Below, in pieces: positions 1,431 through 59,082 of a stretch of DNA of 64,000 bases. A model generated the notes under the pieces. It made no database searches, was not told where the DNA came from, and saw only the letters and a list, made by a program, of their open reading frames with translations. Numbering within the stretch: position 1 is the first letter of the stretch; each line of letters begins with the position of its first letter. The DNA lies in NCBI RefSeq assembly GCF_055900595.2, contig NZ_CM148325.1; one strand, written 5' to 3'. A program made the translations under genes and the position numbers.

Positions 1431-2972
<1,542 letters not shown>

Positions 2973-3325: not shown

Positions 3326-3344
3326 CGCGCAACATTCAACCAAA

Positions 3345-15923: not shown

Positions 15924-15939
15924 GATCCCTCCTTAGTTT

Positions 15940-16803: not shown

Positions 16804-17879
16804 TATTTTCCCTCACGAGTGATCAATTGTTGTTGAAAGATTTTCCGGCTCTTATTCATGTCACGCTGCAACTGCCATTTTTGTTTGATGAATTTAAATG
16901 CCAGTGCGGCGATCAATGTGATCCCCCATACCGCCAGATTGAAATGCAAACTAAGTCCCAACAGACTAAGGCCGGTAGCAATAACCTGAAGCACAAGTAA
17001 GGCACAAAAAACATGACTGACTTTACCCGCCCCACCGAATGGATCTGTGCCTCCCAATACAATTGCAAGAACCGTCAAGAGCAGATAGGAATCGCCATAG
17101 CCCATACGCGCCGAATTAAATCGCGCGAGCATAATAAGACCTGCTAATACACACAACATGCTGGATATAGCATATATAGCAATTAATACGCGGTCGGTGC
17201 GAATACCGCTAAACCATGTGGCGTTAATATTACTGCCACACATATAAATCGTTTTTCCCGTACGGGTTTTGCCGAGGAACAGAGCTAAAGCAACGGTGGT
17301 GACGATAAAAATTATCATCGGTACTGGGATCCCCATGATAACTTCAGACCCAATACTGCGGACTACTGGTGGCATACCACTTAAAGCTGCCCCCTTAGTC
17401 AGGTAAATACCGATACCACTAATAATGGTCATGCTACCCAATGTGACCAAAATAGGGTGAGCGCCTATATGAGAAATAATTGACCCAGTAATAGCTCCAA
17501 TGATGATGGCAATAAGCATCGCCCCGACAATAGCCAGGAAGAGCCAAAACAACTGACTACCTGTAGATGCATCTGCGGGTACATATTGAATCAACAGCCA
17601 GGCCATAAACAGGCTGGTCAGATTCGCAGTACCGATGATTGCCAGATTGAGCCCCCCGCTCAACATGGGTATAAACATCGCAAACGTGAGCAACCCAAGC
17701 TCTGGCAATTGAAATGCAATGCTCAGAAAAGTATTGCCGGTGAAAAAACGCCCCGGCATTACCAGACTAAATAACACCACCGCAATAAAACATATTGATA
17801 ATAAGCCTGAACTGGTACCATCTAGTGGAAAAAATATCCGCTTGTTCATTTCGATCCTCCCGTTAGACGAAACCAACAT
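16803..17879 (-). CDS. monosaccharide ABC transporter permease (CUT2 family)
   Basis: 358-aa polytopic membrane protein immediately downstream of a paralogous permease. True start may be the internal Met (MNKRIFF) at 17849. Confidence 0.75.
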   Translation of the reverse strand: MLVSSNGRIEMNKRIFFPLDGTSSGLLSICFIAVVLFSLVMPGRFFTGNTFLSIAFQLPELGLLTFAMFIPMLSGGLNLAIIGTANLTSLFMAWLLIQYVPADASTGSQLFWLFLAIVGAMLIAIIIGAITGSIISHIGAHPILVTLGSMTIISGIGIYLTKGAALSGMPPVVRSIGSEVIMGIPVPMIIFIVTTVALALFLGKTRTGKTIYMCGSNINATWFSGIRTDRVLIAIYAISSMLCVLAGLIMLARFNSARMGYGDSYLLLTVLAIVLGGTDPFGGAGKVSHVFCALLVLQVIATGLSLLGLSLHFNLAVWGITLIAALAFKFIKQKWQLQRDMNKSRKIFQQQLITREGK

Positions 17880-18855
17880 CAGTTTCTTTACGTTTTTTGT
17901 AATGGGTCACACAAATCGCCGAGACAATAACCACTCCAATAACGATATTGACGAAATAACTCGAGATGCCAATCAAATTAAGGCCGTTTTTAAGAATACC
18001 GATAAGAAATACGCCCATAAGCGTACCAATGACCGTACCACGTCCGCCTGATAAACTGGCACCGCCCAATACCGCTGCAGCCAGCACATCCAACTCTCCG
18101 CCAACCAATGCATTCGGCACAACTTCACTCATACGGTAAGCTTGCAGCATTCCACCAATTGCTGCAGCGGCACCAAGATAACCATAAGCAAACAGATAAA
18201 TTAGCGACACCCGAATCCCAATACGTCTTGCTGATTCGGTATTCCCTCCCACGGCATAAAGCTGACGCCCAATATGGGTTTTGTTCATTATCATCCACGT
18301 CAGAAATGCCATTCCCAGCATAACCACTAACGGTAATCCGATCTGGTAATCTTCTCCGCCAAATTCAAAACTCAGGAAAGAACGCTGCGTAATCCACCAA
18401 TCCGGTAAATCGTAAATACTGTGGCCATTAGTCAACCACATCAACATACCGAACAGTAGCGACTGCATACTAATCGTAATGATGATGGAAACGACATTAA
18501 GGTAATAAATAAGAATAGCGTTTATCAAACCAAAAATGATGCCAAGAAAAACAGCAAACACCAGACAGAAAAATGGATTTGATAGCGTTTCATTAAGCAG
18601 TAACGACGCCACAACATATTGCACAACCGAAGCTACTGCTGCAAAAGAGATATCAATTCCGCCAGTAACCAATACGACAAATAATCCGAGGGCGAAAATA
18701 CCCGTTACGGCATAACTTTCCGAGAGATCGAGCAAGTTCTGTATTGATAAAAACTCATCGCTCATGATGGAAAAAAATACCAGCATGAGAACAATGACCC
18801 ATCCTAACCAAGCTTCGACTGAACGAGGAAACCGCAGCCGCATAAAGCTAACCAT
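17863..18855 (-). CDS. monosaccharide ABC transporter permease (CUT2 family)
   Basis: 330-aa polytopic membrane protein; start overlaps the ATPase stop by 8 nt (translational coupling). Confidence 0.75.
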   Translation of the reverse strand: MVSFMRLRFPRSVEAWLGWVIVLMLVFFSIMSDEFLSIQNLLDLSESYAVTGIFALGLFVVLVTGGIDISFAAVASVVQYVVASLLLNETLSNPFFCLVFAVFLGIIFGLINAILIYYLNVVSIIITISMQSLLFGMLMWLTNGHSIYDLPDWWITQRSFLSFEFGGEDYQIGLPLVVMLGMAFLTWMIMNKTHIGRQLYAVGGNTESARRIGIRVSLIYLFAYGYLGAAAAIGGMLQAYRMSEVVPNALVGGELDVLAAAVLGGASLSGGRGTVIGTLMGVFLIGILKNGLNLIGISSYFVNIVIGVVIVSAICVTHYKKRKETDVGFV

Positions 18856-20365
18856 TAATCACCTCCGCCAACTGCTGCTCGGTATAATTCGAAGGCAACA
18901 GCTCATTAATAATCTTTCCGCGCTTCATATGAAAAATACGATCGCAGTTATAATAAGCTTCTGGTGCTTCATCAGTAATTAATATCACTGAAATACCCAC
19001 ACCTGAAAGCCGATGAATAAGCTGGTAAATACTATCTTTTGCGCCAATATCTACACCTACCGTTGGCGCATCCAGAATTAAAACCTTAGGTCGTGTTAAA
19101 ATCCATTTAGCCAGGACAACCTTTTGTTGATTGCCGCCAGATAGCGTTGAAAGTGGATTATTTGGATCGGTGACTTTAATATCCAAATCCTGGATCCACT
19201 CCTTGACTAAGGTTTCTTTTCGATTTTCATCAATAAACCCCGATGCCGTCTTTAAACGATCCAGAATCGAGAGCACCATATTATCGCTGATAGATTGGGG
19301 TAATACGGCCCCCAGTGTCAGGCGATCTTCTGAAACATATGCTATTCCCAGTTTTACCGCATGCGTGTTGTCTTTAATTGTAACGGGCTTACCTTCCAGA
19401 TAAATATCACCACTATCTGGTCGAGTAATACCGAAAAGACTCAATGCTAATTCAGTTCTCCCCGCACCAAGTAAACCACACAATCCCAGAACCTCGCCCT
19501 GGTGTAGTTTTAGAGAAACATCTTCAAATTGCCCTTTTCTGCATAATTTGTTTAGTTCAAGGACTACTTTGCCTTCAACGCTATTTGGTAGCTTCTTCTG
19601 GTGGACTATAGTTTTTCCGGTCATTAACTCAGTAATATCGCCCGGAGAAAGTTGATTGGCAGCCCACGTTCCAATTATCTCTCCATCACGGATGACCGTA
19701 ATCCGATCTGAAATTTCCTTAACTTCATCAAGGCGGTGGCTAACAAAAACTACGGTAATATTTTTATCGCGTAAGTAATTCACTGTGCGTAGTAATTGAT
19801 TAACTTCTGTACGCGTCAATGATGCCGTTGGCTCGTCCATGATGACTAAGCGGGCATCGGCAATCAGAGCCCGGCAAATCGCGACCTGTTGGCGTTGTGC
19901 AATCGGCAAATGTTGTACTAACGCATCAGGATCGAGATTGAATTGCAGCTCCTGAATTATTTTCTGCGATACATCTCGAAGTTGTTTTTTTCTGTGCAGC
20001 CCTAAATATCCCTTCAGGTTGTATTCAAAAGCGATATTTTCAGCAACAGAAAGATTTGGGAATAAAGAAAGATCCTGATATATCACCTGAATACCCAGTT
20101 CCCGAGCTTTATCAGGAGAAAGACGAGTCCAGGACTTACCATCTATAATAATTTCACTTCCCGAATCAGGGACATAAACACCACACAGCGTTTTGATCAG
20201 AGTACTTTTACCACACCCATTCGCACCAGCAAGACAATGAACCTCACCTTTATTTAAGGTAAGATTGATATTCTTTAGAGCCCTATGGCCACCGAAACTT
20301 TTCGTTAGTGACCTTAGCGTCACTAATGGTTGCTCCGCATTCTTCTCTATAATATGAGGCATCAT
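18848..20365 (-). CDS. sugar ABC transporter ATP-binding protein with duplicated nucleotide-binding domains
   Basis: 505-aa ORF with Walker A GANGCGKST, a second P-loop GLLGAGRTE and the ABC signature LSGGNQQKV; architecture of RbsA/AraG/LsrA-type importers. Confidence 0.85.
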   Translation of the reverse strand: MMPHIIEKNAEQPLVTLRSLTKSFGGHRALKNINLTLNKGEVHCLAGANGCGKSTLIKTLCGVYVPDSGSEIIIDGKSWTRLSPDKARELGIQVIYQDLSLFPNLSVAENIAFEYNLKGYLGLHRKKQLRDVSQKIIQELQFNLDPDALVQHLPIAQRQQVAICRALIADARLVIMDEPTASLTRTEVNQLLRTVNYLRDKNITVVFVSHRLDEVKEISDRITVIRDGEIIGTWAANQLSPGDITELMTGKTIVHQKKLPNSVEGKVVLELNKLCRKGQFEDVSLKLHQGEVLGLCGLLGAGRTELALSLFGITRPDSGDIYLEGKPVTIKDNTHAVKLGIAYVSEDRLTLGAVLPQSISDNMVLSILDRLKTASGFIDENRKETLVKEWIQDLDIKVTDPNNPLSTLSGGNQQKVVLAKWILTRPKVLILDAPTVGVDIGAKDSIYQLIHRLSGVGISVILITDEAPEAYYNCDRIFHMKRGKIINELLPSNYTEQQLAEVING

Positions 20366-20428
20366 AATATTCCTGAATACGACTAAAGGAATTCCGGGTC
20401 AAATTTGACCCGGTGATTTACAGTAAAA

Positions 20429-21433
20429 TTACAAGCCTAGCTTCACTAAACGTCGTGTATTTTCAAGATCGAGCTTTTCTGGATTATCACTATAAATAGT
20501 GTTGTTATTAACCTTGATCTCGCCCATATCACCGATTTTTACACCGTCTTTAATAGGTTCACCGTTCATCATTGCCGTCGCAACCTGGACAAAAACCTTA
20601 CCCGCAATCATAGGGTTTGAAATATATCCCCCATCAATGGCACCTTTTTCGAGTAGCTTAATTCCCTGACCTGGAGTGAAGGTTCCAAAAACGCAAATTG
20701 CATCATTTTTCTTCCGCTTATCAATAGCACGCCCCGCACCAATTGGTCCTTGTGAACCAAATGACATAATGCCTTTAAGATCTTTATATTTAGACATTAA
20801 ATCGTTCGTCGTGCGCATTGAATCATCCACCGACTCAGCAACACCAAAACGATCTTCAACCAACGTCATATTTGGATAATGTTCTTTTTGATAGGCAATC
20901 GCGGCATTGGCCCAGTCATTTACCAAAGGCACAGTCAGACTGCCGACAAACATGGCGTATTTACCTTCTTCGCCCATACACTTCGCCATATCTTTCATAT
21001 GATTGGCACCCATTGTCTGGGTATTTAACAACTCAAAATCCCAATCTGCATTTTTTTGATCTGGTGATTCGTGGGTAATAACTTTAATACCGGCTTCTTG
21101 TGCACGCTTAAGTACAGGTTCAAGAACCTTTGCATCGTTAGGAACAACACCAATAACATCCACTTTTCGTGCAATTAAATCTTCAATCGCCCGAACCTGT
21201 TCAGCTGGATCTGCCGTTGTAGGGCCGACCTGCCATGCATCAACCCCCAATAGTTTTCCTTCATTTTTAATGCCTTGTTCCATCACATTAAACCAGGGAA
21301 TTCCACCGACTTTTACTACTACCCCCATCGTAAAAGGTTTATTCGCTTTTTGTGATGTTACAGTCTGATCAGCCCATGCAGCAGTGGAAGATAATACGGT
21401 AGCAATAAGGCAGGGTAAGATTAATTTTTTCAT
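20429..21433 (-). CDS. periplasmic sugar-binding protein (type I PBP, ABC substrate-binding component)
   Basis: 334-aa ORF with an N-terminal signal peptide (MKKLILPCLIATVLSSTAAWA) and LsrB/RbsB-like fold features; first gene of the transporter operon. Confidence 0.75.
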   Translation of the reverse strand: MKKLILPCLIATVLSSTAAWADQTVTSQKANKPFTMGVVVKVGGIPWFNVMEQGIKNEGKLLGVDAWQVGPTTADPAEQVRAIEDLIARKVDVIGVVPNDAKVLEPVLKRAQEAGIKVITHESPDQKNADWDFELLNTQTMGANHMKDMAKCMGEEGKYAMFVGSLTVPLVNDWANAAIAYQKEHYPNMTLVEDRFGVAESVDDSMRTTNDLMSKYKDLKGIMSFGSQGPIGAGRAIDKRKKNDAICVFGTFTPGQGIKLLEKGAIDGGYISNPMIAGKVFVQVATAMMNGEPIKDGVKIGDMGEIKVNNNTIYSDNPEKLDLENTRRLVKLGL

Positions 21434-21555
21434 CGTAATTTCCTTAAGAAATAGTTCAGGTGTCAGGAAAACTCGATATAATATCGACCTGACTATTTAT
21501 ATAATTTATAATCCCTTAGGCATTGATTAATAATTTAGACAATAAATAACGCCTA

Positions 21556-22365
21556 TTATTTATCAACCTCCACAATGTTTAATTGTGGAAATTGTGTTCG
21601 ATACCGAGTATCTGTACAAACATTAGTCACCAGAATATCGATTTCATCCAGCGTGCATATTTTACTAAATGCATACTGTTCAAACTTAGTGGAGTCGACC
21701 AGCAATATTTTTTGTCCTGACACCTGAAGCATCACCTGTTTAAGTCTGGCATTAATTTCACTGCCATCGCGGACACCATTCCCCAGATTCAACCCCTGGC
21801 ATGAAAAGAAAAAACTGTTGATTTGAAAATTTCGGATCGCACTCTCTGCAACCGGGCCATGAAAATCATCATGTCGCTCAGAATACTCACCACCGATACC
21901 AATAATTCGAACTCGATCACGGCAAGCTAACGCCTGAATTATCCGTAATGAATTTGTAACTACGGTAACATCTATATCGGGAATTTGACGAGCTAAAAAC
22001 CAACAAGTACTACTGTTATCCATTAAAATACAATCACCAGGGTGAATAAATTGCAATGCGGCCTTCGCAATTCTGGCTTTTATATCAGGATTTTCTTCAG
22101 TCCGTTTACGGAATGATTCCGCACGATCGATACTATTATCTTGCCACGCATTATCGGCGAGCATAACCGGAGCGCTATCAGATGAATCCAGAGCGACCGC
22201 GCCACCAAAGCTACGGATTAACTTTTTGTTGCGCTCCAGTACCGTTAAATCCCGACGAATTGTCTCAGGAGACGCTTTAAATAATCGTGATAATTCAGTT
22301 ACCCGCACAGCACCTTGTTTTTGTACATGTGCGCATATCATTTTATGGCGCTCTGCCTGCAACAT
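21556..22365 (-). CDS. DeoR-family transcriptional regulator
   Basis: 269-aa ORF with an N-terminal HTH (VRVTELSRLFKASPETIRRDLTVLE) and a C-terminal DeoR sugar-phosphate-binding domain. Confidence 0.8.
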   Translation of the reverse strand: MLQAERHKMICAHVQKQGAVRVTELSRLFKASPETIRRDLTVLERNKKLIRSFGGAVALDSSDSAPVMLADNAWQDNSIDRAESFRKRTEENPDIKARIAKAALQFIHPGDCILMDNSSTCWFLARQIPDIDVTVVTNSLRIIQALACRDRVRIIGIGGEYSERHDDFHGPVAESAIRNFQINSFFFSCQGLNLGNGVRDGSEINARLKQVMLQVSGQKILLVDSTKFEQYAFSKICTLDEIDILVTNVCTDTRYRTQFPQLNIVEVDK

Positions 22366-22806
22366 AGTATCGGTCCGTTATTATCAAATTAGCATGCTTA
22401 TATAATTAACTGTTCCCTCATAAAATAAAGTGATAGGAATCAAGATTCATTTTATAATTATAATCGCAAACAGGAATGGTGATCTTTATCACAAATTAAA
22501 TTGAGAACACTCTACTATTTGACATTACTTTGAGATATCGGTCACTAAATAAGTCTTATTCTGCCATCTAACGAAAAATTTAAATACAAAAACAAAAATA
22601 ATCGGGCATAGCAATCGCTTCCATTCATGACCGAATACGCCCGAATAAAACCGTTTATACCCACTTATCCTCTTTCGTTGCCTTCTTACATGCCTTGAAT
22701 ATTTTACATTTCTTATATTCAGCGTAATTTAGGAAACATAATTTATGAGCAAAAAAAGCCCAAACTCAAAAGTTAAAGTTTATTTATATAATACATACAG
22801 ATTATC

Positions 22807-23511
22807 GTGGAGTTAAAAATGGATATGCTAAAGGAAAAAGTTCTTGCTGCGAATTTATCATTACCCCTTCATCAGTTAGTGACGTTTACCTGGGGAAATG
22901 TTAGTGGTGTTGATCGCGAAAAAGGTGTCATGGTTATTAAACCTTCTGGGGTCGAATACAGCCAAATGGGCATTGCAGATATGGTGGTAGTGGATTTACA
23001 AAGTGGTGAAGTTATTGATGGACACAGGAAACCCTCTTCAGACACCGATACTCATCTGGCGCTATACCGTGCTTTCCCGGATATTGGTGGTATCGTTCAT
23101 ACCCATTCCCGACACGCCACAATATGGGCTCAGGCCGGAAAAGATCTCACGGCCTTTGGGACAACCCACGCTGATTATTTCTACGGCACTATCCCCTGTA
23201 CACGCCCCATGAAGGATGACGAAATTAATGGACAATATGAATATGAAACGGGGCGAGTGATTATTGAAACGTTCAGACAACGAGAAATATCTCCCGCTGA
23301 CATTCCGGCTGTTTTAGTAAACAGTCATGGCCCCTTTGCCTGGGGAACTGATCCCGCGAACGCCGTGCATAACGCCGTTGTACTTGAAGAAATTGCCTAT
23401 ATGAATCTCTTTACACAACAACTACAGCCCCATCTTACGGCTATTCAACAGCCTCTACTGGATAAGCATTTTTTACGCAAGCATGGTGCCAATGCTTATT
23501 ACGGGCAGTAA
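22807..23511 (+). CDS. L-ribulose-5-phosphate 4-epimerase (class II aldolase fold, AraD/SgbE/UlaF family)
   Basis: 234-aa ORF closely resembling AraD ([74 protein letters not shown]), including the conserved metal-binding His residues. Confidence 0.85.
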
Positions 23512-45455: not shown

Positions 45456-47690
<2,235 letters not shown>

Positions 47691-47964
47691 TTATAATTGA
47701 ATTAATCCACGGATGCGATAGTTGAGATCTTACATATTGTTGGTTAAAGAGATGTAGATCAAATTGATCGTAATTAAGCTTTTTTGATTATGTCCGAATT
47801 CGGACAAATGCTTTATAAAAAAGGGTTTTAGCTTCCTATTCTTCAAGGAAGGAGGGCGAAAACAAAGCTGACAACCTTATTTTTCCGCCCTCATTTCGAG
47901 GCAGCATTTTGTGCTCTGTTTAAAATTTGTGATCACAGTGTGATTTTCACAAAAGCCACACTAT

Positions 47965-48858
<894 letters not shown>

Positions 48859-48902
48859 TTACCTCATCAATCGCTTGTAGTTATATGTTGTGTTGTGCAC
48901 AT

Positions 48903-48942
48903 CTATCCGTTTAGACGTCCAGATGTAAAGATGAAGGAAAAG
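48903..48942 (-). promoter_or_regulatory. MetJ operator (tandem met boxes) upstream of metF
   Basis: Reverse complement contains TTTACATCTGGACGTCTAAACGGATAGATG with repeated AGACGTCT-like 8-mers. Confidence 0.7.
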
Positions 48943-49237
48943 CTGAAGGGCGTCAACCGAAAAATGACCAATGATGGTGAGGAAAAATCAGGGAAGATGA
49001 AAAAAACTCATCTTAATTAGAGGTAATAAAGAGATTTCTTTATAGCGCAATCAACCTCACTCGTTTTGACTGATATACAGGCAACACAACGGCACCTGTT
49101 CTCATTCGAAAAACAACGCCCTGCCACCAGATGGTGATGCTAAAGCATCTGATTCGGCCTGCGCTCTCGTGTAGGCCGAATACAGAATCTGCGAAATCAA
49201 CTGGTAACAAACAGTAGAGTCAACTCAGTGCGTACTT

Positions 49238-50797
49238 TTATTTAATATCTTTCACGCGCATACCGTTGATCTGTTCATCCGTGATGGTGTTACCCGCTTT
49301 AAAGTAATCAACCACCGCGTGATAAACGTAATAACCGCCCGTCGTATTGCGCGCTTTACCCTCGGTAAACGCGGTAAAACCATCTCCACCATCAGCAAGG
49401 AAACTCTGAGTAGCAATGTGGTAAACCGTCGCATCTTCAATCGGTTTGCCATTCAGCGTCAGCGAGATAACCCGCTGACCAACCGGCTTGCTGCTGTCGT
49501 ACTTCATTTCCAGGCCTTTCGATACCTGTAAAACGCCATTACTTAAACTTGCGCCGTGTTCCATCAAACCGCGTAATTGTTTACCCGTGAGTTCCATCGT
49601 CACCAGTTCGTTGGGGAACGGGAAGGTACTGATGACGCCACCCATCGTAATTGCACCCGCCGGGATCTCATTGCGAATCCCACCAGAGTTGGTTAACGCC
49701 AACTGGGTATTTTTACCCGCCGCTACCAGTAAAGCGTCCGCCGCCAGGTTCCCCAGGGATGCCGATTCACCATAGGCACGTTTTAATTCAACTGGCGATT
49801 GCGCCACCGTTTGCTGCACGACTTCATCCAGCTTTTTATTCCAACTATCAATCACCTGTTTTGTTTGCGCATCGGGCTTCCACTCGTCGGCGTAAAGGGT
49901 TTTAAGCTCGAAGTTTTTCACCGTAAAAGTGTGCGGTTTCTCTTTGTAGTCGAGAACCAGTTTACCCACATCAATCCCACCGCTGTCAGTGGAGAGGATG
50001 AGCGTATTGCCGACTTTAATCGGTTCCGGCGTACCCACATGTGCATGCCCGGTGATCAAAATATCCAGCCCTTTCACCTGACTTGCCGTCTGAATATCTT
50101 TATCCAGTGCGCGGCGCACATCTGTGCCCCCCATACTGGACTGGCGGGCCGGAACACCTTCGTGAATCAGCGCAACGGTCAAATCAACCTTGCCTTTGAG
50201 TTCATCGATATAACGTTGTAGCCATTTAATTTCATCACGCGCCTCAATACCCACTCGCGTTGCCGCAGATACCGTATCATTAAAGGCAAATACACCGTGC
50301 AAACCTATAACACCAATTTTCACGCCGTCTTTTTCAATAATGGTATATGGCTTATCCCAGAATGATTTACTGCTGTTCTGATAAAAAACATTACCCTGCA
50401 CAATCGGGAATTGTGCCTGACTCAACTGTAATAACGTATTGTCCCAGCCGTGATCAAATTCATGATTACCTATAGTGGCCGCATCGAACGGCATGGTATT
50501 CATAATATCGATAATCGCCTTGCCTTTAGTCAGGCTGCTGATATACGGCCCGGTAAAATAGTCACCCGCATCAAAAAACCAGGTCGCTTTGTTTTTAGCT
50601 TTTTCTTGTTTAACAAGCGTAGTGATATTTGCCCAGCCGCCAATATCCCGTTTACCCTCAGCAATCCACGGCACTTTATAGGGCTCTACATGTGCGTGGA
50701 GGTCATTGGTATAAATAATGGTGACATCTTTGGCGCAGGCCCAAAACGGCAGTGTTAATGCGATACCCGCAGCAAGCATTTTAATTTTCATAAACAA
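49238..50797 (-). CDS. secreted 5'-nucleotidase / UDP-sugar hydrolase family metallophosphoesterase (UshA-like), paralog 1
   Basis: 519-aa ORF with a signal peptide ([18 protein letters not shown]), calcineurin-like motifs ([30 protein letters not shown]) and a C-terminal 5'-nucleotidase domain with the FPF nucleobase clamp. Start may be M3 or M7. Confidence 0.8.
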
Positions 50798-50923
50798 TCC
50801 CTTCCAGTGAGATAAAGGATTGCTACATTACGTTCTGAAAGGCTTTTTTATGTGAGAATACTCACATCCAGAGGCAATAACTGTAGGACAAAATCGACGA
50901 CCTTATGAAATCGTTGGTGATAT

Positions 50924-52051
50924 ATGTCAAATCTGTTTGCGATTAATGTCTGTAAAACGTTCGGTTGTCGAAATTTGGGATTGGCCTCATCGGAAGATTA
51001 CAGTTGGCCAGACTATAAACTGGGTTTTCCGGCACTGCACTGCCAGGCATGCGGAAGTTACCCCCCTTTGTTTGATGAACAACAATTTCGTGACTGGTTG
51101 TCAGTTCACATGACTGCGTGTGCCATAGAAACAGGGCATTTTTGTCCATCATGCTATTGTAAAGAAAAGATTTTTTATGGCCACAACCCGCATGGAACAC
51201 AACGCGTTCAATGCCGTTCATGCAAAAAAGTCTGGACTCCGAAACAGCAGCCAGCAAGAGAAATTACGTATCCCCAGTCCATTGAAACCGTTCAACTGTT
51301 CATGCCCTTTCAAGGAGCCAGCGCACTACAAAAGCTCTATGTTTTAGTCAGTCTTGACGCCACTCGTGGCAACATCCTTCATCTCTCCACGAATTATACG
51401 CAACATCAGACAGGAGACAGTCTGCGGTACAGTTACAGAGGCAATACAGAACCAACTGAGCACCATAGCGATATTGTGCAGAGGGTAGATATGCGTGAAG
51501 CGCAATTCTTGCGCCGGAGCCAGTTCGATGAAATTCAGTATGGCAGTGCTGTGCTCAAGCGCAATGGCAAGGGAGCCATACTACGCCCGGTTATCACGGC
51601 TCACGGGCATTTCAGAATACTGAAAATCCGCTTTCCACATGTCAAAACGCATATCATTTCACACGAATGTTTTCTGAGAGGCGCAATTATTACAGCCTGG
51701 GCAGATCAGTTCCGCCAACAACAAGGCGAACTTTGGTTCGTAGAAGAAGAAATCAGCGACCGTAACGCTGATATTCCCTGGCATTTTCAGGGAACGACAT
51801 ACCATGGTTGGTGGCAAAATCAGTGGCAACGCTGGGGGCAGGGGAATAACAGCAAGATGGTCTGCCTGCTCACAGGAGTCTCCTTAGAAAGGGGCGCAAA
51901 TGTTTCTCTGGCAACCAGTCGTTGCTTTATCACATGGCTGACAGACCAACACGACTTTACCCAAAGCGCGTTATTATCCGCAGGTCGCGTAACGAAAATG
52001 CTGACCTCACTGGCGTTAAAATACAATGAATCGCTCACTCCATCTTGTTAG
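50924..52051 (+). CDS. hypothetical Cys-rich protein with a transposase-type zinc-ribbon motif
   Basis: 375-aa ORF. N-terminal Cys pairs (CKTFGC, HCQACG, FCPSCYC, QCRSCKKVW); the segment CPSC...GTQRVQCRSCKKVW resembles the IS1/IS1595 transposase zinc ribbon. No recognisable DDE triad or HTH seen by eye. Confidence 0.5.
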   Translation: MSNLFAINVCKTFGCRNLGLASSEDYSWPDYKLGFPALHCQACGSYPPLFDEQQFRDWLSVHMTACAIETGHFCPSCYCKEKIFYGHNPHGTQRVQCRSCKKVWTPKQQPAREITYPQSIETVQLFMPFQGASALQKLYVLVSLDATRGNILHLSTNYTQHQTGDSLRYSYRGNTEPTEHHSDIVQRVDMREAQFLRRSQFDEIQYGSAVLKRNGKGAILRPVITAHGHFRILKIRFPHVKTHIISHECFLRGAIITAWADQFRQQQGELWFVEEEISDRNADIPWHFQGTTYHGWWQNQWQRWGQGNNSKMVCLLTGVSLERGANVSLATSRCFITWLTDQHDFTQSALLSAGRVTKMLTSLALKYNESLTPSC

Positions 52052-52280
52052 TCAATACACTCGACAAACGACCATAAATTAATGGGATCACTATTTCTCA
52101 TTTAATTAAATATATGAATGTATGACTGAAAAATATAATCACAGTCAATGTTTAATTAATAACATTATTTGTTACTAAGATCACATAATACTTTCCTGAC
52201 CTATGCTTACATAAAAATAAGACACGGAGTTCCTTTTATTTAAATAATTCAACCAATGTAACAACCCCTATCAAGGAGGG

Positions 52281-53834
52281 ATGATGAGAACTGTATTTAC
52301 GACTTTATCAGTCATATTCAGCGTGATGTTTTCTCACAGTATACTAGCTCAGGACGTTACTATTTATTATACGAATGATATTCACGCACATGTCAATCCG
52401 GCAAAAATTCCCGCTGTTGATAAGAACAGACTTGTAGGTGGTATGGCTAATATTGCAGGCATCGTTAATGAAGCGAAGAAAAAAAACAAAGATGTCTTTT
52501 TCTTTGATGCAGGCGACTATTTTACCGGTCCGTATATCAGTACCCTGACCAAAGGTGAAGCTATTATTGATATCATGAACACCATGCCCTTTGATGCGGT
52601 GTCCGTTGGTAATCACGAGTTCGATCACGGCGTGCCCAATATGGTATCTCAGTTATCAAAAGCAAAATTCCCCATTCTGCTGGGAAATATTTACTACACC
52701 GATACAAATAAACCAGTTTGGGATCATCCGTGGACTATTATCGAAAAAGATGGTTTAAAGATTGGTGTGATTGGATTGCATGGTGCATTCGCTTTCTATG
52801 ATACAGTCGCGGCAAAAGCACGTGAAGGCGTAGAAGCCAGAGACGAAATTAAATATTTAAATAAAGCACTTGCAGAATTAAAAGGTAAAGTCGACATTAC
52901 CGTTTTGCTAATTCACGAAGGTGTTCCGGCGCGTCAATCAAGCTTTGGTAGTAAAGATGTGGAGCGGCTACTACAGGCAGATATTGAGACAGCTAAAAAA
53001 GTGAATGGTGTTGATGTCTTAATTACCGGTCACGCACATGTCGGAACACCGCAACCAATAAAAGTTAATAACACATTAATTGTATCTACCGATGCATACG
53101 GCACCGACATCGGAAAACTTGTGCTTGATTACAATCCGAAAACGAAGAAAATTGATAGTTATAATGGTGAGTTAATCACCATCTTCGCAGATCAATTTAA
53201 ACCTGACACCATCGTTCAAAATACTATCGATAAATGGAGTGCAAAGCTTAACAAAATAACACAGGAAGTTGTCGGCCATTCTCCCGTAGTTTTAACACGT
53301 GAGTATGGCAGTTCTTCTTCTACCGGTAACCTTATTCTTGATGCAATGATGGAAAAAACACCAGATGCCATTGCCGGATTTCAAAATAGCGGTGGGATGC
53401 GAGCTGATTTTCCTAAAGGTGATATCACGCTGGGAGATGTTATTAGCACATTCCCCTTTAATAATGACCTCATCGAGATGGATTTGACGGGCCGCGATCT
53501 CAAATCGTTGATGACGCATGCAACCAATCTAACTAACGGTGTGTTACAGGTTTCAAAAAGCGTTGCGGTTGTCTATGACAGCAAAAAACCACTGAACCAA
53601 CGGTTAATCTCTTTCACCATTAACGGCAAACCCGTGGAAGATAATCAAACATATCGTATTGTCACGCACTCCTTTTGTGCCAGTGGTGGTGACGGTTTTG
53701 AAGCATTTTTGAATGGAAAAAATGTGAAGACGATACCGGGAACAACCTCGGCGGAATCTATCATCGATTATTTCAAAAATCATAAACCTGTCACCCCAGA
53801 CTTAACTAAACGAGTAATGGACGTCGCCAAATAA
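52281..53834 (+). CDS. secreted 5'-nucleotidase family metallophosphoesterase (UshA-like), paralog 2
   Basis: 517-aa ORF with a signal peptide (MMRTVFTTLSVIFSVMFSHSILA-QD) and the same catalytic motifs (YTNDIHAH, GDYFTGP, GNHEFD, GHAHVG, TFPF); the most divergent of the three copies. Confidence 0.8.
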   Translation: MMRTVFTTLSVIFSVMFSHSILAQDVTIYYTNDIHAHVNPAKIPAVDKNRLVGGMANIAGIVNEAKKKNKDVFFFDAGDYFTGPYISTLTKGEAIIDIMNTMPFDAVSVGNHEFDHGVPNMVSQLSKAKFPILLGNIYYTDTNKPVWDHPWTIIEKDGLKIGVIGLHGAFAFYDTVAAKAREGVEARDEIKYLNKALAELKGKVDITVLLIHEGVPARQSSFGSKDVERLLQADIETAKKVNGVDVLITGHAHVGTPQPIKVNNTLIVSTDAYGTDIGKLVLDYNPKTKKIDSYNGELITIFADQFKPDTIVQNTIDKWSAKLNKITQEVVGHSPVVLTREYGSSSSTGNLILDAMMEKTPDAIAGFQNSGGMRADFPKGDITLGDVISTFPFNNDLIEMDLTGRDLKSLMTHATNLTNGVLQVSKSVAVVYDSKKPLNQRLISFTINGKPVEDNQTYRIVTHSFCASGGDGFEAFLNGKNVKTIPGTTSAESIIDYFKNHKPVTPDLTKRVMDVAK

Positions 53835-53868
53835 AATATCATTTATCAGTCTATTTATTTAACAAGGA

Positions 53869-55494
53869 ATGCGAATGAAAACAGTGCAGCGTACTTTACT
53901 TGCCGCAACATTGCTGACTATTTTTTCGGTCTCAGCCATGGCGCAGGATGTCACGATTATTTATACCAATGATCTTCACGCTCATGTGGATTCTTATAAA
54001 GTGCCGTATATCGCAGACGGAAAACGCGACATTGGCGGCTTTGCCAATATATCTACTTTAGTAAAACAAGAGAAAGCGAAAAATAAAGCCACCTTTTATT
54101 TTGATGCTGGAGACTATTTCACCGGCCCTTATATCAGCAGTCTGACAAAGGGCGAAGCAATAATTGACATTATGAATACCATGCCTTTTGACGCAGTATC
54201 AATCGGTAATCATGAGTTTGACCATGGCTGGGATAATGCCCTGCGACAATTAAGCAAAGCGAATTTTCCTGTTTTATTGGGCAATGTTTATCATAAAGAG
54301 AGTGAGAAACCCTTCTGGAACAAGCCCTACACCATCCTGGAAAAAGATGGCATCAAGATTGGTATTATTGGGCTACACGGCGTATTTGCATTTAATGATA
54401 CGGTCTCGGAGCTCTCTCTCCAGGGACTCGATAATGACAATAATAACCGCTTTGATAAATCTTCCGAGACCCTTAAGAATCAGGGGATTGAAGCACGTGA
54501 TGAAGTGAAGTATTTGCAGCATTATATCGACGAGTTACGTGATAAGGTTGACCTCACTGTGGCGCTGGTTCATGAAGGCGTTCCGGCGCGTCAGTCCAGC
54601 ATTGGCAATACAGATGTTAGACGCGCTCTTGATAAAGATATTCAAACCGCTAGCAAGGTGAAAGGATTGGATATTCTGATTACCGGGCATGCCCACGTCG
54701 GAACGCCAGAGCCAATCAAAGTCGGCAACACCTTAATCCTTTCAACTGATAGTGGCGGTATCGATATTGGTAAATTAGTCCTTGATGTCAACCCTACAGC
54801 TCGTACCCATAAAATGAAGAGCTTTGAGCTGAAAACAGTTTATGCCGATGAATGGATACCCGATCCAACGACACAAAAAGTTATCAATGGCTGGAATAAA
54901 AAACTGGCGGATATTGTACGCCAACCAGTGGGTGAATCATCGATTGCATTAACTCGCGCCTATGGTGAGTCATCGCAACTAGGCAACCTGTTTACCGATG
55001 CAATGCTTGTCGCTGCTCCGACTGCACAGATTGCATTGATAAACTCCGGCAGCTTACGTGCGGATATAAATGCAGGCACGATTACCTTTGGCGACATTAC
55101 CAGTACATTCCCCTTCAAGAATGAACTTACTGAAATGGATCTCAGCGGTAAGGATCTGCGTAACCTACTGGAACACGGGGCATCGCTTACCAATGGCATC
55201 CTGCAAATGTCAAAAGGCGCAGAAATGCGCTATACCCCGCAGAAACCAGTAGGTCAGCGCATAGTATCTTTTAAAATTAATGGTGAAGAGATCGTTGATA
55301 CGAATATTTACCATGTTGCAACAACGACTTTCCTTGCACTGGGGGGCGATGGTTTTCTGGCATTCAAAGAAGGGAAAAATGTTCAGGTCCGCGCCGGAAA
55401 TAACATGTCCGATGTCGTGATCGATTATTTGAAGAAAGGCCACAAGATTACGCCTGCACAGGTAAATGAAATGCGGGTGGACGTTAGCAAATAA
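53869..55494 (+). CDS. secreted 5'-nucleotidase family metallophosphoesterase (UshA-like), paralog 3
   Basis: 541-aa ORF with a signal peptide (...FSVSAMA-QD) and the same motifs; very similar to paralog 1 (roughly three-quarters identical by eye) but with an extra roughly 24-aa Asn/Asp-rich insertion (ELSLQGLDNDNNNRFDKSSETLKNQG). Confidence 0.8.
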   Translation: MRMKTVQRTLLAATLLTIFSVSAMAQDVTIIYTNDLHAHVDSYKVPYIADGKRDIGGFANISTLVKQEKAKNKATFYFDAGDYFTGPYISSLTKGEAIIDIMNTMPFDAVSIGNHEFDHGWDNALRQLSKANFPVLLGNVYHKESEKPFWNKPYTILEKDGIKIGIIGLHGVFAFNDTVSELSLQGLDNDNNNRFDKSSETLKNQGIEARDEVKYLQHYIDELRDKVDLTVALVHEGVPARQSSIGNTDVRRALDKDIQTASKVKGLDILITGHAHVGTPEPIKVGNTLILSTDSGGIDIGKLVLDVNPTARTHKMKSFELKTVYADEWIPDPTTQKVINGWNKKLADIVRQPVGESSIALTRAYGESSQLGNLFTDAMLVAAPTAQIALINSGSLRADINAGTITFGDITSTFPFKNELTEMDLSGKDLRNLLEHGASLTNGILQMSKGAEMRYTPQKPVGQRIVSFKINGEEIVDTNIYHVATTTFLALGGDGFLAFKEGKNVQVRAGNNMSDVVIDYLKKGHKITPAQVNEMRVDVSK

Positions 55495-55504
55495 TAAAAA
55501 AATT

Positions 55505-55540
55505 ATAATGCCATTCATTCACTGAATGGCATTATTTTTC
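55505..55540 (+). terminator. intrinsic terminator after nucleotidase paralog 3
   Basis: Hairpin AATGCCATTCA-TTCAC-TGAATGGCATT followed by ATTTTTC. Confidence 0.7.
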
Positions 55541-55572
55541 TCTAAATCAACAATAAATAATGAGATATATTT

Positions 55573-56433
55573 ATGTGTATAAAAAAGCACGGGATAGCTT
55601 TATCGATTCTATTAATACCTTGCATTGGAAACGCTCAGGAAATTAAAAGTGAGGAAGGCTGGTTACATCAAAGCTTGAATGTCATTGGTCGCACAGACTC
55701 TCGCTTTGGCCCAAGGCTGACTAACGACCTCTACCCTGAATATACTGTAGCAGGAAGAAAAGACTGGTTTGATTTTTATGGTTATGTTGATCTACCAAAA
55801 TTCTTTGGCGTCGGCAGTCACTATGATGTTGGGATCTGGGATGAGGGCTCACCACTATTTACGGAAATAGAACCTCGGTTTTCCATTGACAAATTGACCG
55901 GATTAAATCTTGCGTTCGGCCCTTTTAAAGAATGGTTCATTGCAAACAACTATGTCTATGATATGGGTGACAACCAGTCATCCCGGCAAAGTACATGGTA
56001 TATGGGGCTTGGTACAGATATCGACACGGGTCTACCAATTAAGCTTTCTGCCAATATATACGCCAAGTATCAGTGGCAAAACTATGGTGCCGCTAATGAA
56101 AATGAATGGGACGGATATCGATTCAAAATAAAATATAGCATTCCTCTTACCCATTTATTCGGAGGGCGATTGGTATACAATAGTTTTACTAACTTTGATT
56201 TTGGCTCCGATCTTGCGGACAAATCACACAATAATAAACGAACCAGTAATGCTATTGCTTCAAGCCATATCCTTTCCCTGCTATATGAACACTGGAAATT
56301 TGCATTTACACTACGTTATTTTCACAACGGTGGACAATGGAATGCTGGGGAGAAAGTTAACTTCGGAGATGGTCCATTTGAATTAAAAAACACAGGATGG
56401 GGAACCTATACTACTATTGGTTATCAATTTTAA
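55573..56433 (+). CDS. Tsx-family outer-membrane nucleoside-specific channel (paralog of tsx)
   Basis: 286-aa ORF with a signal peptide ([23 protein letters not shown]). Long blocks match E. coli Tsx as I recall it ([83 protein letters not shown]), and the C-terminal aromatic residue is typical of beta-barrels. Confidence 0.85.
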
Positions 56434-56614
56434 ATCAGGTGATGTTTTAGATATTTTTACTTAATGCCATTTTGTAATTGTCATAAATAACTTCACCATT
56501 CACACTGTGAATTCATCGCTCAACACAAAAGCCCCCTTATTACCGGGGCACTGACCAAAGGCAAAATGACAATCAATCACCACCTCCGCAGGAGGTGGTT
56601 TAGAGGTGACAACA

Positions 56615-56641
56615 AAAGCTGGCAACTGCCAGCTTTTGTTC
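56615..56641. terminator. bidirectional intrinsic terminator downstream of metL
   Basis: Perfect palindrome AACAAAAGCTGGCA-ACT-GCCAGCTTTTGTT immediately 3' of the metL stop; a second hairpin ACCACCTCC-GCA-GGAGGTGGT lies at 56578..56598. Confidence 0.75.
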
Positions 56642-56649
56642 AATAATCA

Positions 56650-59082
56650 CTACAACAACTGCGCCAGACGGTTAATATCCGACTGAATCGCCCCAGCGGT
56701 GACGTCGCGCCCTGCACCTGGCCCGCGGATCACCAGCGGGTTGTCGCGATACCAGCGGCTTTCGATGGCAAAGACGTTATCGCACGGTAGTAGTGATGCC
56801 AGCGGATGGTCTTCACGCACCGCTTCCACGCCCACTCGCGCTTTGCCGTTGGCATCGAAACGCGCCACGTAGCGCAACACCAGCCCCATTTCACGGGCCG
56901 CTTCCAACCGTTGTACCATCTGCTCATTAAGTTCATCGCCATTTTCAAAGAAATGGTCGATGCTTCCACCTTCGCAATGGGTTGGCACCAGTGATTCAAC
57001 ACGCACCTGGTCCGGTTCAATGTTGTAACCCGCTTCACGCGCCAGAATCACCAGCTTGCGCATCACATCTTTGCCGGAGAGGTCATCACGCGGGTCAGGT
57101 TCAGTTAAGCCCTGCTGCCACGCCTGATCCACCAGCTCAGTAAACGGCACGCTACCGTCGAATTGCAGGAACAGCCAGGAGAGCGTGCCGGAGAAGATCC
57201 CGCTGATCGACAAAATAGTGTCGCCGCTGTCGATCAGATCGCGCACGGTATGGTTGATCGGCAAACCTGCGCCGACGGTGGCGTTGTATAGCCAGTGACG
57301 CCCGGTTTTTTCGAACGCGTCGTGGATCTGGCGATATTTATTGCTGTCGCTCGCTCCCGCCAGTTTGTTGGCACTGATGACGTGGAAACCGTGGCTGGCG
57401 AAATCGAGATACTGATCAGCAAGCTGCTGGCTGGCAGTAACGTCCAGCACAACTAAATCATCATACGGATGGGCACGCATCCACAGGAATAGCGACTCTT
57501 CATCCTGTTCGACGGCTTCATCATTAAAGAAGGCTAGCGCACGGCTGGCGTCCAGCCCGTCATAGCTCAACAGGCTGCGACGGCTGTCCACCACGCCTGC
57601 CAGCACAAATTCAAAGCCGGTGCGCGCCGAGAGCGTGCTCTGCTCACGGGCGAACAGTTCCAGCCAGCGGGAACCGATATTGCCCTTACCGAACAATACC
57701 AGGCCGATGCGTTTTTCTGCGCGGAAGACGGACTGATGCAGCCCCTGAATCAGGCTTTCGGTCGGGCCGGTGCGCAGTACTGCCACCAGGCTGATGCCGT
57801 CATCGGACTGCCAGGTAAACTCGACCGGCTGGCCTTTCAGTTGCTGCCAGAAGCGGTGGCAATGCAGCGGGTTACGGGTGACGCCCGCCCCAACCATCGC
57901 CACCAGCGCCAGCCCCTGACGCAGACGCAGTTCGCCGGGTAATCCTGCTTCGTCGAGGATTTTCAGCGCACTGTCGGCCACTTCCGAGGTGTAGCAAAAT
58001 TGCAGCAACTGGCGATCGTTATGCACGCCAACTGCCAGTGGGCGCACCTGAGCACGTTTCAGGATTTGGTCGATCTCTTTATGCGCCAGTTTAAAATCCT
58101 GACTGGCGGGCACCTGAAACTCAATCAAACAGACATCATCGTGGCTGGTGACAATACGCGCGCCAGTACCTGAGGCCAGCACGCGTTCAATGCGCGTGGA
58201 ACCTTGATCCGGCGTGTAGCTACAGCGCAGCTGCAGGTCGATTTCGCTGCCAGAAACTGGCTGTAAAGTACGGGCGTGAAGAACGGGGGCCGCCAGACGC
58301 GCCAGTTCGCTGGCTTCATCCAGACGCAGCAACGGCAGCAGGCAGGCGTCTTTCACTTTACGCGGGTCGGCGCTATATACCCCGGCGACATCGCTCCAGA
58401 TGGTTACGCGGGAAACTCCCGCCAGCGCACCGATTTGTGTCGCGGAATAGTCGGAACCGTTACGCCCCAGCAGCACCGTTTCACCGGCGTTGTTGCGGCT
58501 GATAAATCCGGTCACCACCAGGCGTTTGCCCGGATGTTGCACCAGTAGTTGTTGCAGCAATGGGTACGAAAGGCCTTCATCAACCTGTGGTTGCGCGGCA
58601 CGTTCAGCGCGTAAAAACTCGCGGGCATCAAGCCAGGCCGCAGGCAATCCTTGTTGATTAAGCACCGCAGACATTAAGCGTGCCGACCACACTTCCCCGT
58701 GGCCCACCACTTCTGCATACACCGCATCATTAATACCGCTGTCGAGCAGCGCCGCGAGGCGTTCCAGATCGCTGACAAAGGCGCTAATGAGGCTATCGGC
58801 TTCTTCGGCGGGTAGCAGGCCGCTAATCAGATCGCACTGATAGCGACGCAGCGTTTGTTGAACCTGATGCGCAGAGAGACGATCGGCCTGGCTTAGTTTC
58901 AACCAGTTAATCAACTGGTTAGTGGTGCTACCGGCGGCGGAAACCACCATCATATCGTCAGGCTGAGAGTACTCCGCCATAATGCCCGCGACACGCAAAT
59001 AACACTTCACATCAGCCAGACTACTGCCACCAAATTTATGCAGTTGACGACCTTTCGCCCCTGCCTGCGCAATCACACTCAT
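56650..59082 (-). CDS. metL: bifunctional aspartokinase II / homoserine dehydrogenase II
   Basis: 810-aa ORF (MSVIAQAGAKGRQLHKFGGSSLADVKCYLRVAGIMAEY...) with an N-terminal aspartokinase domain and a C-terminal homoserine dehydrogenase domain. Confidence 0.95.
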   Translation of the reverse strand: MSVIAQAGAKGRQLHKFGGSSLADVKCYLRVAGIMAEYSQPDDMMVVSAAGSTTNQLINWLKLSQADRLSAHQVQQTLRRYQCDLISGLLPAEEADSLISAFVSDLERLAALLDSGINDAVYAEVVGHGEVWSARLMSAVLNQQGLPAAWLDAREFLRAERAAQPQVDEGLSYPLLQQLLVQHPGKRLVVTGFISRNNAGETVLLGRNGSDYSATQIGALAGVSRVTIWSDVAGVYSADPRKVKDACLLPLLRLDEASELARLAAPVLHARTLQPVSGSEIDLQLRCSYTPDQGSTRIERVLASGTGARIVTSHDDVCLIEFQVPASQDFKLAHKEIDQILKRAQVRPLAVGVHNDRQLLQFCYTSEVADSALKILDEAGLPGELRLRQGLALVAMVGAGVTRNPLHCHRFWQQLKGQPVEFTWQSDDGISLVAVLRTGPTESLIQGLHQSVFRAEKRIGLVLFGKGNIGSRWLELFAREQSTLSARTGFEFVLAGVVDSRRSLLSYDGLDASRALAFFNDEAVEQDEESLFLWMRAHPYDDLVVLDVTASQQLADQYLDFASHGFHVISANKLAGASDSNKYRQIHDAFEKTGRHWLYNATVGAGLPINHTVRDLIDSGDTILSISGIFSGTLSWLFLQFDGSVPFTELVDQAWQQGLTEPDPRDDLSGKDVMRKLVILAREAGYNIEPDQVRVESLVPTHCEGGSIDHFFENGDELNEQMVQRLEAAREMGLVLRYVARFDANGKARVGVEAVREDHPLASLLPCDNVFAIESRWYRDNPLVIRGPGAGRDVTAGAIQSDINRLAQLL

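Follow-up and report, generated by a model that had tools for sequence, protein, structure and literature searches.

A probable domesticated descendant of an IS1-type transposase, and putative regulator, paired with a 5'-nucleotidase gene in Escherichia coli

Introduction

What is a cysteine-rich protein with a transposase-like zinc ribbon doing among a set of nucleotidase genes? The question is raised by an open reading frame (ORF) at positions 50924-52051 (plus strand) of a 64,000-nucleotide stretch of contig NZ_CM148325.1 (RefSeq assembly GCF_055900595.2), which at its full length is called the window here. The window derives from Escherichia coli, and the query region is 99.4-100% identical to the best-matching strains listed, which include IAI39 and CE10. 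The ORF is uninterrupted, encodes 375 amino acids (aa) and is labelled in E. coli IAI39 as the hypothetical protein WP_000067197.1 in RefSeq. It sits in an island between metF (47965-48855, minus strand) and metL (56650-59082, minus strand). An earlier note made from the sequence alone had placed it divergently from one nucleotidase gene (nucleotidase 1) and upstream of two others (nucleotidases 2 and 3), and both the ORF map and the RefSeq annotation agree with this description. The same note regarded the protein as an orphan, possibly a domesticated transposase-derived regulator or else a remnant of the element that had brought in the nucleotidase block. The analysis reported here indicates that the ORF is very probably a domesticated, inactive descendant of an IS1-type transposase (IS, insertion sequence). 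The full model, in which this transposase-derived protein is a CRP-linked regulator of the nucleotidase, is cautiously favoured.

Results

Zinc sites and homology to IS1 InsA

The four cysteine pairs that had been pointed out in the first 100 residues (C10/C15, C40/C43, C74/C77 and C97/C100) were found to be invariant or nearly so in a family alignment of 49 diverse relatives, which speaks for two C4 zinc sites and against a chance occurrence of cysteines. The first two pairs form a site that has no counterpart in IS1 InsA; the homology to IS1 detected by hhalign starts only at about residue 70. The last two pairs form a zinc ribbon of the InsA/IS1 type. In an AlphaFold2 model built on the family alignment (mean predicted local distance difference test score, pLDDT, 94.5; predicted template modelling score, pTM, 0.93), both zinc modules lie within residues 1-100 and are joined by a helix.

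The likeness between the second site and the IS1 zinc ribbon, also proposed in the earlier note, turned out to be weak for the single protein and solid for the family. The window protein matches the NCBIfam IS1 transposase model NF033558 with an E-value of 7e-4 and 19.6 bits, below the curated cut-off of 100, and it reaches only a sub-threshold match to the Pfam family Zn_ribbon_InsA (PF03811; independent E-value 0.14) and a weak zinc-ribbon match to a PHROGs 'transposase' family (E 0.005). Among the relatives, seven of the 49 match Zn_ribbon_InsA at E<=1e-3, and three pass the curated cut-off of NF050000, a model of the IS1/IS1595 zinc domain. The best relative scores 35.5 bits against NF033558 (cut-off 100), and one relative (P0140) aligns with positions 1-130 of the 199 positions of the IS1 transposase model at E 3.7e-7. 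When the family profile was compared by hhalign with residues 4-106 of IS1 InsAB', a probability of 96.4% and an E-value of 1e-9 were obtained.

Loss of the helix-turn-helix and an RNase H-like core

No helix-turn-helix (HTH) had been recognised in the window protein, and the model bears this out, as it contains no helices between residues 97 and 119. The short linker found here is 18 residues long and is shared by the close enteric relatives. Between the zinc ribbon and the first strand of the following domain, the distant relatives, which are 400-570 aa in length, are longer by about 55 residues, and hhalign aligns these residues to the HTH of InsA. The model of one such relative (P0171; pLDDT 86.9) contains helices at residues 111-126, 131-138 and 142-168 in the HTH region.

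A transposase-type RNase H-like core, which had been missed in the earlier note, is predicted in the C-terminal two-thirds of the protein. Residues ~119-258 of the AlphaFold2 model follow the RNase H-like order beta1-beta2-beta3-alpha1-beta4-alpha2-beta5-alpha3, with further strands and then a C-terminal helical bundle after residue ~258. The closest solved structures to the core are those of DDE transposases and integrases. As the earlier note had also observed, a DDE triad is absent: no D-D-E is conserved in the family alignment. The only universally acidic column is E248, located just after beta5, and the positions of the triad hold a conserved T122 on beta1 and R221-P222 after beta4. The conserved residues of the core are T122, R198, D202, Y206, P222, H229, H247, E248, R252, W297 and W301; two of them (R198 and H229) are invariant, and Y206, P222, H247, E248, R252, W297 and W301 are strongly conserved.

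The profile-model and structure-prediction searches that had been suggested as a check returned IS1 zinc-ribbon homology and an RNase H-like core, and no unrelated enzyme family; no enzyme-family match was found in Pfam, NCBIfam or PDB. Comparison of the family profile with PDB sequences gave matches to eukaryotic C2H2 zinc-finger arrays, which were rejected as artefacts of Cys/His spacing since they cover residues ~30-115 only, and gave no match in the C-terminal domain. The ORF, nucleotidase 1 and relative P0171 have no match among the PADLOC defence-system models, and no Rfam family was found in 47000-57500.

A widespread, single-copy and immobile gene

The protein is not an orphan. A total of 252 homologues were found at E<=1e-3 in a word-indexed search, and an exhaustive search of a 1.84-billion-protein library gave 122 homologous cluster representatives, 89 of them at E<=1e-10. 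The homologues are distributed across Enterobacterales and Vibrionales (Escherichia, Citrobacter, Enterobacter, Klebsiella, Salmonella, Vibrio, Photobacterium and others). The AlphaFold DB has neighbours in Salmonella, Klebsiella, Enterobacter, Atlantibacter, Serratia, Proteus, Vibrio, Photobacterium and other genera, which bear the labels 'cytoplasmic protein', 'InsA N-terminal zinc ribbon domain-containing protein' or 'IS1 family transposase'.

Of 5426 complete E. coli genomes, 1841 (34%) carry the gene, with exactly one copy in each. Of these copies, 1839 are on chromosomes and two are on records typed as plasmids. In every E. coli and Citrobacter locus that was examined the gene lies at metF-metL, and neither a second family member nor a copy of IS1 was found elsewhere in the window. 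Terminal inverted repeats (TIRs) had not been noticed around the ORF, and a search of its flanks did not detect any; the IS1 terminal repeat has no match there at up to three mismatches. The only inverted repeats that flank the ORF (pairs I2/I3) were considered as TIRs and rejected, because they are CRP-like half-sites of the two neighbouring promoters and the right-hand copy is missing from two-gene islands. In the two-gene form of the island, the 3' end of the ORF overlaps metL and so leaves no room for a right element end. Taken against the defining features of an IS1 transposase, the window protein has no HTH, no triad, no terminal repeats and no mobility, and scores below the NCBIfam cut-off; for this reason the ORF should not be annotated as an IS1 transposase, despite its descent.

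The ORF is under purifying selection and is fast-evolving. Comparison with a 91%-identical allele gives a ratio of nonsynonymous to synonymous substitution rates (dN/dS) of 0.24, and comparison with the ~76%-identical allele gives 0.10; the values for nucleotidase 1 and metF are 0.03 and 0.01.

Three classes of ORF allele were observed in E. coli, with at least 99% identity (97 genomes), 90-95% identity (561 genomes) and ~76% identity (1175 genomes) respectively. In comparisons with loci L003 and L044, the synonymous divergence dS between the window and the ~76% allele is 1.8 for the ORF and only 0.33 for nucleotidase 1, which points to a recombination breakpoint at the ORF or within it. The divergent ~76% allele is accompanied, in the examples that were examined, by the absence of nucleotidase 2, nucleotidase 3 and tsx.

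Conserved pairing with nucleotide-scavenging genes

The conserved unit at this locus is the divergent pair formed by nucleotidase 1 and the ORF. In other E. coli the pair is on its own at metF-metL, while in Citrobacter and one more enteric locus it is joined only by an adjacent LysR-type regulator and a small gene of the carboxymuconolactone-decarboxylase family. In Enterobacter and Klebsiella it occurs at other chromosomal sites, with nucleotidase-nucleotidase-tsx or nucleotidase-tsx-nucleotidase operons. A relative with 29% identity is likewise divergent from a nucleotidase gene.

A genome scan with one genome per species, for which sub-alignment A3 served as the query, gave 27 loci and is biased towards Vibrionaceae. 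At 22 of the 27 loci (Vibrionaceae and related), the family gene follows an orthologous nucleotidase gene on the same strand, at a distance of 6-100 bp from its end, and these nucleotidases are about 33% identical to those of the window. Other members have as neighbours nupC together with a purine/uridine nucleoside phosphorylase gene, the phosphorylase gene alone, nupC-deoC-deoA-deoB-deoD (Gynuella), transaldolase-nupC-adenosine deaminase (tal-nupC-add) and tsx (Aliagarivorans), or a porin with a class B acid phosphatase and a class II cyclic-nucleotide phosphodiesterase. Nucleotide- or nucleoside-scavenging neighbours were thus observed at every examined locus with flanking sequence, and the theme of the neighbourhood is the conversion of external nucleotides to nucleosides followed by nucleoside uptake and catabolism. 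The earlier suggestion that the ORF is a relic of a delivering element is not supported by these observations: the pairing with a nucleotidase is ancient and shared by Vibrionales and Enterobacterales, and it occurs without nucleotidases 2 and 3. The protein is moreover intact, has a confidently predicted fold and is under selection.

Two loci, L045 (Enterobacter hormaechei; 658-6176) and L047 (Klebsiella sp.; 553-6167), have an extra nucleotidase and tsx in the operon of nucleotidase 1, whereas in the window the extra nucleotidases and tsx are on the side of the putative regulator. Compared with these loci, the gene order of the window looks like a rearrangement of a mobile cassette. A natural deletion variant was observed in Vibrio hepatarius DSM 19134 (L039, ~5900-6820), where, by comparison with L022, a deletion has apparently removed the nucleotidase together with the 5' portion of the family gene and the promoter elements described below stay directly upstream of the truncated family gene.

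An ACCAAC box phased with a CRP site

The region between nucleotidase 1 and the ORF contains a conserved box, ACCAACGATTTCATAAGGTCGTCGATTTTG, and a perfect CRP consensus, TGTGAgaatacTCACA (Table 1). The ACCAAC core of the box (50918..50913) is conserved in the enteric loci and also in Vibrionaceae and other loci. The box overlaps the ribosome-binding site (RBS) of the ORF and ends 6 bp before the ATG. A candidate -10 hexamer of the nucleotidase 1 promoter lies 20 nt downstream of the CRP site, within a block, TTTCAGAACGTAAnGTAGC, that is conserved in homologous promoters. With this candidate as the -10 element, the CRP site would be centred near -41, in a class II geometry, and the box would fall at about -80 to -115.

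An alignment of 13 Vibrionaceae nucleotidase promoters contains a conserved block, ACCAACnCAAAtGGAAACT, after which a CRP-like site and a TATAnT hexamer align with no gaps. The distance from ACCAAC to TGTGA is 52 bp in these promoters and the same in the E. coli region. We scanned both strands of 492 kb, comprising the non-redundant loci and the window, for composites of the two elements, with up to one mismatch in ACCAAC, up to one in the CRP half-sites and a spacing of 51-53. A total of 25 composites were found, compared with about 0.4 expected by chance according to our own estimate from per-position match probabilities. All 25 adjoin a family gene and exactly one is in the window. In a histogram of spacings from -120 to +120, 24 pairs fall at +52 and at most five at any other spacing. 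The 80-bp composite also occurs once in exactly those 1841 E. coli genomes that carry the gene.

Nucleotidase promoters are not the only ones with the composite, as it was also found upstream of nupC, nupC-deo, the porin-phosphatase operon and a tsgA-like transporter gene; the nucleoside phosphorylase gene is preceded by a composite with looser matches only. The composite therefore tracks the family gene and not the nucleotidase. At locus L006 (7169-9420), a relative is flanked by three composites, two of which face the porin-acid phosphatase-phosphodiesterase operon while one, downstream of the gene, faces the gene of the tsgA-like transporter of the major facilitator superfamily, an arrangement that hints at multi-promoter regulons in some species.

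The sequence that follows the core differs between clades. In the enteric clade, which has no HTH, the box reads ACCAACGATTT-N7-GGTCGTTGATTTTG (3' part GATTT-N7-GGTCGTTGATTTTG) and contains the palindrome CAACGA-N10-TCGTTG, whose second arm is TCGTTG in most enteric relatives and TCGTCG in the window allele. In the clades with an HTH, the core is followed by AAATGGTAAAT. This co-variation of box and HTH would fit a zinc ribbon that reads the core and an HTH that reads the flank.

In some Vibrio nucleotidase promoters (L017-L020 and L032; alignment A4, columns ~176-190), a LacI-family-type palindrome, GCAAACGTTTGC, was observed between the box and the CRP site. The palindrome, GCAAACG(A/T)TTGC, resembles the PurR/LacI-family operator, which suggests further control of a purine or CytR type in these promoters.

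Features of the locus

The features of the locus are listed in Table 1. Nucleotidases 2 and 3 and the Tsx-like channel gene (52281..56433 together) are not present in the two-gene form of the island. The nucleotidases have apparent N-terminal signal peptides, as judged by eye from the translations, and the cysteine-rich protein has none, which makes a direct partnership after export unlikely. The Tsx-like channel gene of the window is intact (286 aa; 491.8 bits against a cut-off of 311), and the copy in IAI39 is annotated as a pseudogene with its C-terminus missing.

Table 1. Coordinates of the annotated features in the window
Feature	Position	Strand	Basis
Cys-rich ORF, probable domesticated IS1-type transposase homologue, putative regulator	50924..52051	+	ORF call, RefSeq CDS, homologue family, AlphaFold2 model
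N-terminal zinc site 1 (C10, C15, C40, C43), family-specific	50951..51052	+	Cys columns at least 90% conserved
Zinc ribbon 2 (C74, C77, C97, C100), InsA/IS1 type	51143..51223	+	Profile matches; C97 and C100 invariant
Short linker (residues 101-118) replacing the ~55-residue three-helix HTH of distant relatives	51224..51277	+	Alignment gap, hhalign, models
Predicted RNase H-like (DDE-transposase-type) core (residues ~115-320), no conserved D-D-E triad	51266..51883	+	
Conserved upstream box ACCAACGATTTCATAAGGTCGTCGATTTTG, candidate operator	50889..50918	-	Conserved in all enteric loci
Perfect CRP consensus TGTGAgaatacTCACA (TGTGA-N6-TCACA), between nucleotidase 1 and the ORF	50851..50866	.	Read from sequence; conserved in homologous promoters
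Candidate -10 hexamer TAATGT of the nucleotidase 1 promoter	50825..50830	-	
5'-Nucleotidase 1 (UshA-like metallophosphatase), conserved divergent partner, putative regulated target	49238..50797	-	ORF call, RefSeq, locus comparison
CRP-like site TGTTActaagaTCACA upstream of nucleotidase 2, no ACCAAC box	52170..52185	.	
Nucleotidase 2, lineage-specific addition, downstream on the ORF strand	52281-53834	+	
Nucleotidase 3, lineage-specific addition, downstream on the ORF strand	53869-55494	+	
Tsx-like nucleoside channel, lineage-specific addition, downstream on the ORF strand	55573-56433	+	

Elsewhere in the window, 14445-23511 is a stretch of low GC content (0.37-0.45, against about 0.5 in the flanks) with a sugar-utilisation cluster. 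It contains genes for two ATP-binding cassette (ABC) permeases, an ABC ATPase and a substrate-binding protein, together with an FGGY pentulose kinase, an L-ribulose-5-P 3-epimerase, an L-ribulose-5-P 4-epimerase and a DeoR-family regulator, and is probably a separate acquired island.

Discussion

Proposed role of the protein

Both the transposase origin and the domestication that the earlier note had proposed are upheld, the former by the homology to InsA and the RNase H-like fold and the latter by a single-copy, syntenic gene with no TIRs or triad and a dN/dS of 0.10-0.24. The regulatory part of that proposal is supported indirectly but consistently, by the neighbourhood conserved across orders and by the ACCAAC box at a fixed 52 bp from a CRP site.

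According to our model, an IS1-like transposase would have lost its catalysis and its ends, the ancestral protein would have gained an extra zinc module, and the protein would then have been fixed as a DNA-binding regulator of nucleotide-scavenging genes. It would bind the box (50889-50918) through its zinc domains, probably as an oligomer held by the dead core, for which oligomerisation is the probable present function. Together with cAMP-CRP at 50851-50866 (about -41), it would control the promoter of nucleotidase 1. Since the box overlaps the region of its own RBS and start codon, the protein would also autoregulate there. The newly conserved residues R198, H229, H247, E248 and R252 cluster in the former active site and so may bind a nucleoside or nucleotide effector. 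More tentatively, and with somewhat less than even confidence, we propose that the family forms an undescribed class of transcription factors derived from IS1-type DDE transposases in Vibrionales, Enterobacterales and neighbouring gammaproteobacteria, which would use a phased ACCAAC operator with cAMP-CRP, a core for oligomerisation and effector sensing and, in the enteric clade, recognition by the zinc ribbon only.

Several observations weigh against this model. InsA needs both its zinc finger and its HTH, and the absence of an HTH from the window protein makes its DNA binding uncertain. With the C-terminal domain alone, the hhalign comparison with the IS1 DDE region was not significant (probability 0.25%), so that the case for deriving the core from the IS1 DDE domain is built on the fold and on the N-terminal homology; Foldseek against the PDB gave nothing below E 1e-3. 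The ORF evolves several-fold faster than its neighbours. As regards the box, the scan covered family-adjacent loci and the window, and since the box, the family gene and its target are always found together, the box could be bound by a different factor. A position matrix made from the 13 Vibrio boxes did not recover the E. coli box in the window; only the ACCAAC core and the spacing are shared, and for this reason the test of core plus spacing, with the histogram as its control, was used. No composite was found upstream of nucleotidase 2, nucleotidase 3 or tsx. The CRP-like site TGTTActaagaTCACA has no ACCAAC box beside it, so these three genes may be CRP-controlled without being direct targets, or may be read through from the ORF. 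Neither a publication nor an experiment on the family was found in the open-access literature, where absence is no proof of novelty.

Three other explanations were weighed. It is unlikely, in our judgement, that the protein is a domesticated transposase descendant that does not bind DNA at all and is instead a cytoplasmic enzyme or small-molecule binder of nucleoside metabolism, with the His/His/Glu/Arg cluster as its active or binding site and the box bound by another factor. Such a role would accord with the constellation of R198, H229, H247, E248 and R252 in place of the triad, with the loss of the HTH in the enteric clade, with the many nucleases among RNase H-like folds and with the operon-like position of the Vibrionaceae gene behind a nucleotidase, as expected of a pathway enzyme. 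Two C4 zinc modules are conserved, of which one is homologous to a module known to bind DNA, and most clades retain the InsA-like HTH; both points argue in the other direction, as does the box, which tracks the family gene whether the target is a nucleotidase, nupC, deo or porin/phosphatase genes and co-varies in sequence with the presence or absence of the HTH. The lack of an enzyme-family match in Pfam, NCBIfam and PDB also counts against it. A co-regulator that acts through contact with a protein such as CRP or RNA polymerase, without reading the box, has a similarly low probability. The box would then belong to another regulator or serve as a UP-like or architectural element, and its fixed 52-bp geometry recalls promoters controlled by CytR: in E. 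coli deoP2, tandem CRP sites lie about 52-53 bp apart with CytR between them. Fixed phasing to a CRP site near -41, loss of the HTH in the enteric clade and the palindrome GCAAACGTTTGC between the box and the CRP site in some Vibrio promoters are all in keeping with this reading. The upstream element is, however, unlike a CRP site, the palindrome occurs at only some loci, the box was found only beside family genes in the DNA scanned and the zinc ribbons are strongly conserved.

An active or recently decayed IS transposase, left over from the element that delivered the block and having no host function, is largely refuted and is given hardly any credence here. The weak matches to IS1 transposase models and the automatic annotation of some relatives as 'IS1 family transposase' would be expected from it, and an island present in only 34% of E. 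coli genomes and a module found at other chromosomal sites in Enterobacter and Klebsiella could be read in the same way. Opposed to these are the single copy in 1841 of 1841 genomes, the absence of TIRs and of a D-D-E triad, the score of 19.6 bits against a curated IS1 cut-off of 100, the extra zinc domain and product lengths of 375-520 aa against 232 aa for InsAB', as well as an intact ORF under purifying selection whose pairing with a nucleotidase is conserved between orders.

If the regulator model is true, the protein would be an example of a protein-only, IS1-derived bacterial regulator with a regulon of nucleotide and nucleoside scavenging. In eukaryotes, many cases are familiar in which a DDE transposase gave rise to a host transcription factor, and the recent bacterial cases known to us come from RNA-guided TnpB/Cas12 nucleases. 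The missing specific regulator of the periplasmic nucleotidase set would be identified, and the labels 'cytoplasmic protein' and 'hypothetical protein', as well as the misleading 'IS1 family transposase', would be corrected. The gene occurs in a third of complete E. coli genomes, including CE10 and IAI39, which are associated with extraintestinal pathogenic E. coli (ExPEC), and in many Vibrio, Citrobacter, Enterobacter, Klebsiella and Salmonella. The ACCAAC box locked at 52 bp from a CRP site supplies a cis-logic that can be tested.

Comparison with known systems

The nearest known relatives are the proteins of IS1. InsA is a repressor that binds the ends of IS1 through a zinc finger and an HTH, both of which are required, and it represses a promoter that overlaps its own binding site; the transposase InsAB' adds the DDE core (PMC12428005). 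The family shares with InsA and InsAB' a homologous N-terminal C4 zinc ribbon that is followed by an HTH in most of its members, and with InsAB' an RNase H-like C-terminal core. Unlike InsAB', it has no D-D-E triad, no terminal repeats and no frameshifted two-ORF layout, is found as a single copy at a fixed locus and possesses a C-terminal helical bundle as well as an additional zinc domain at its N-terminus. Unlike InsA, the enteric clade has no HTH, and it is proposed to act on a host promoter and not on the ends of a transposon. IS1595 transposases (PF12760 with DDE_Tnp_IS1595) have the same type of zinc ribbon, and weak PF12760 matches were found in four of the 49 relatives, but there is no match to the IS1595 DDE domain and no mobility feature, and the matches to InsA are stronger. 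The IS1 inverted repeat contains GCCAAC, and its resemblance to the box may be a lead.

Among bacterial transcription regulators derived from transposons, nuclease-dead derivatives of TnpB (TldR) are reported, and exapted Cas12f homologues reportedly act as transcription regulators as well. The concept is the same, namely a transposon-encoded DNA-targeting protein that has lost catalysis and is fixed beside host genes. Those regulators are of the RuvC type and RNA-guided, whereas the window protein is of the DDE type (RNase H-like) with no evident guide RNA, as no Rfam hit was obtained, and its recognition would be protein-DNA. A host transcription factor derived from a bacterial DDE transposase was not found in the open-access literature searched. 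Eukaryotic counterparts are FHY3/FAR1, from Mutator-like elements, and CENP-B, from pogo, which are domesticated DDE transposases that serve as DNA-binding factors. They too keep the DNA-binding domain next to a catalytic core that is inactive but structural or oligomerising, and they too are single-copy and syntenic, although they belong to another superfamily and another domain of life.

As for the promoters, CytR/CRP and DeoR control those of nucleoside catabolism in E. coli (deo, tsx, nupC, cdd and udp). The composite described here resembles the CytR/CRP promoters in the kinds of target, in the predicted dependence on CRP and in a second element phased about 52 bp upstream. It differs from the CytR and DeoR promoters in that the candidate regulator is unrelated to the LacI and DeoR families and in that the second element is an ACCAAC box rather than a second CRP site or a CytR octamer.

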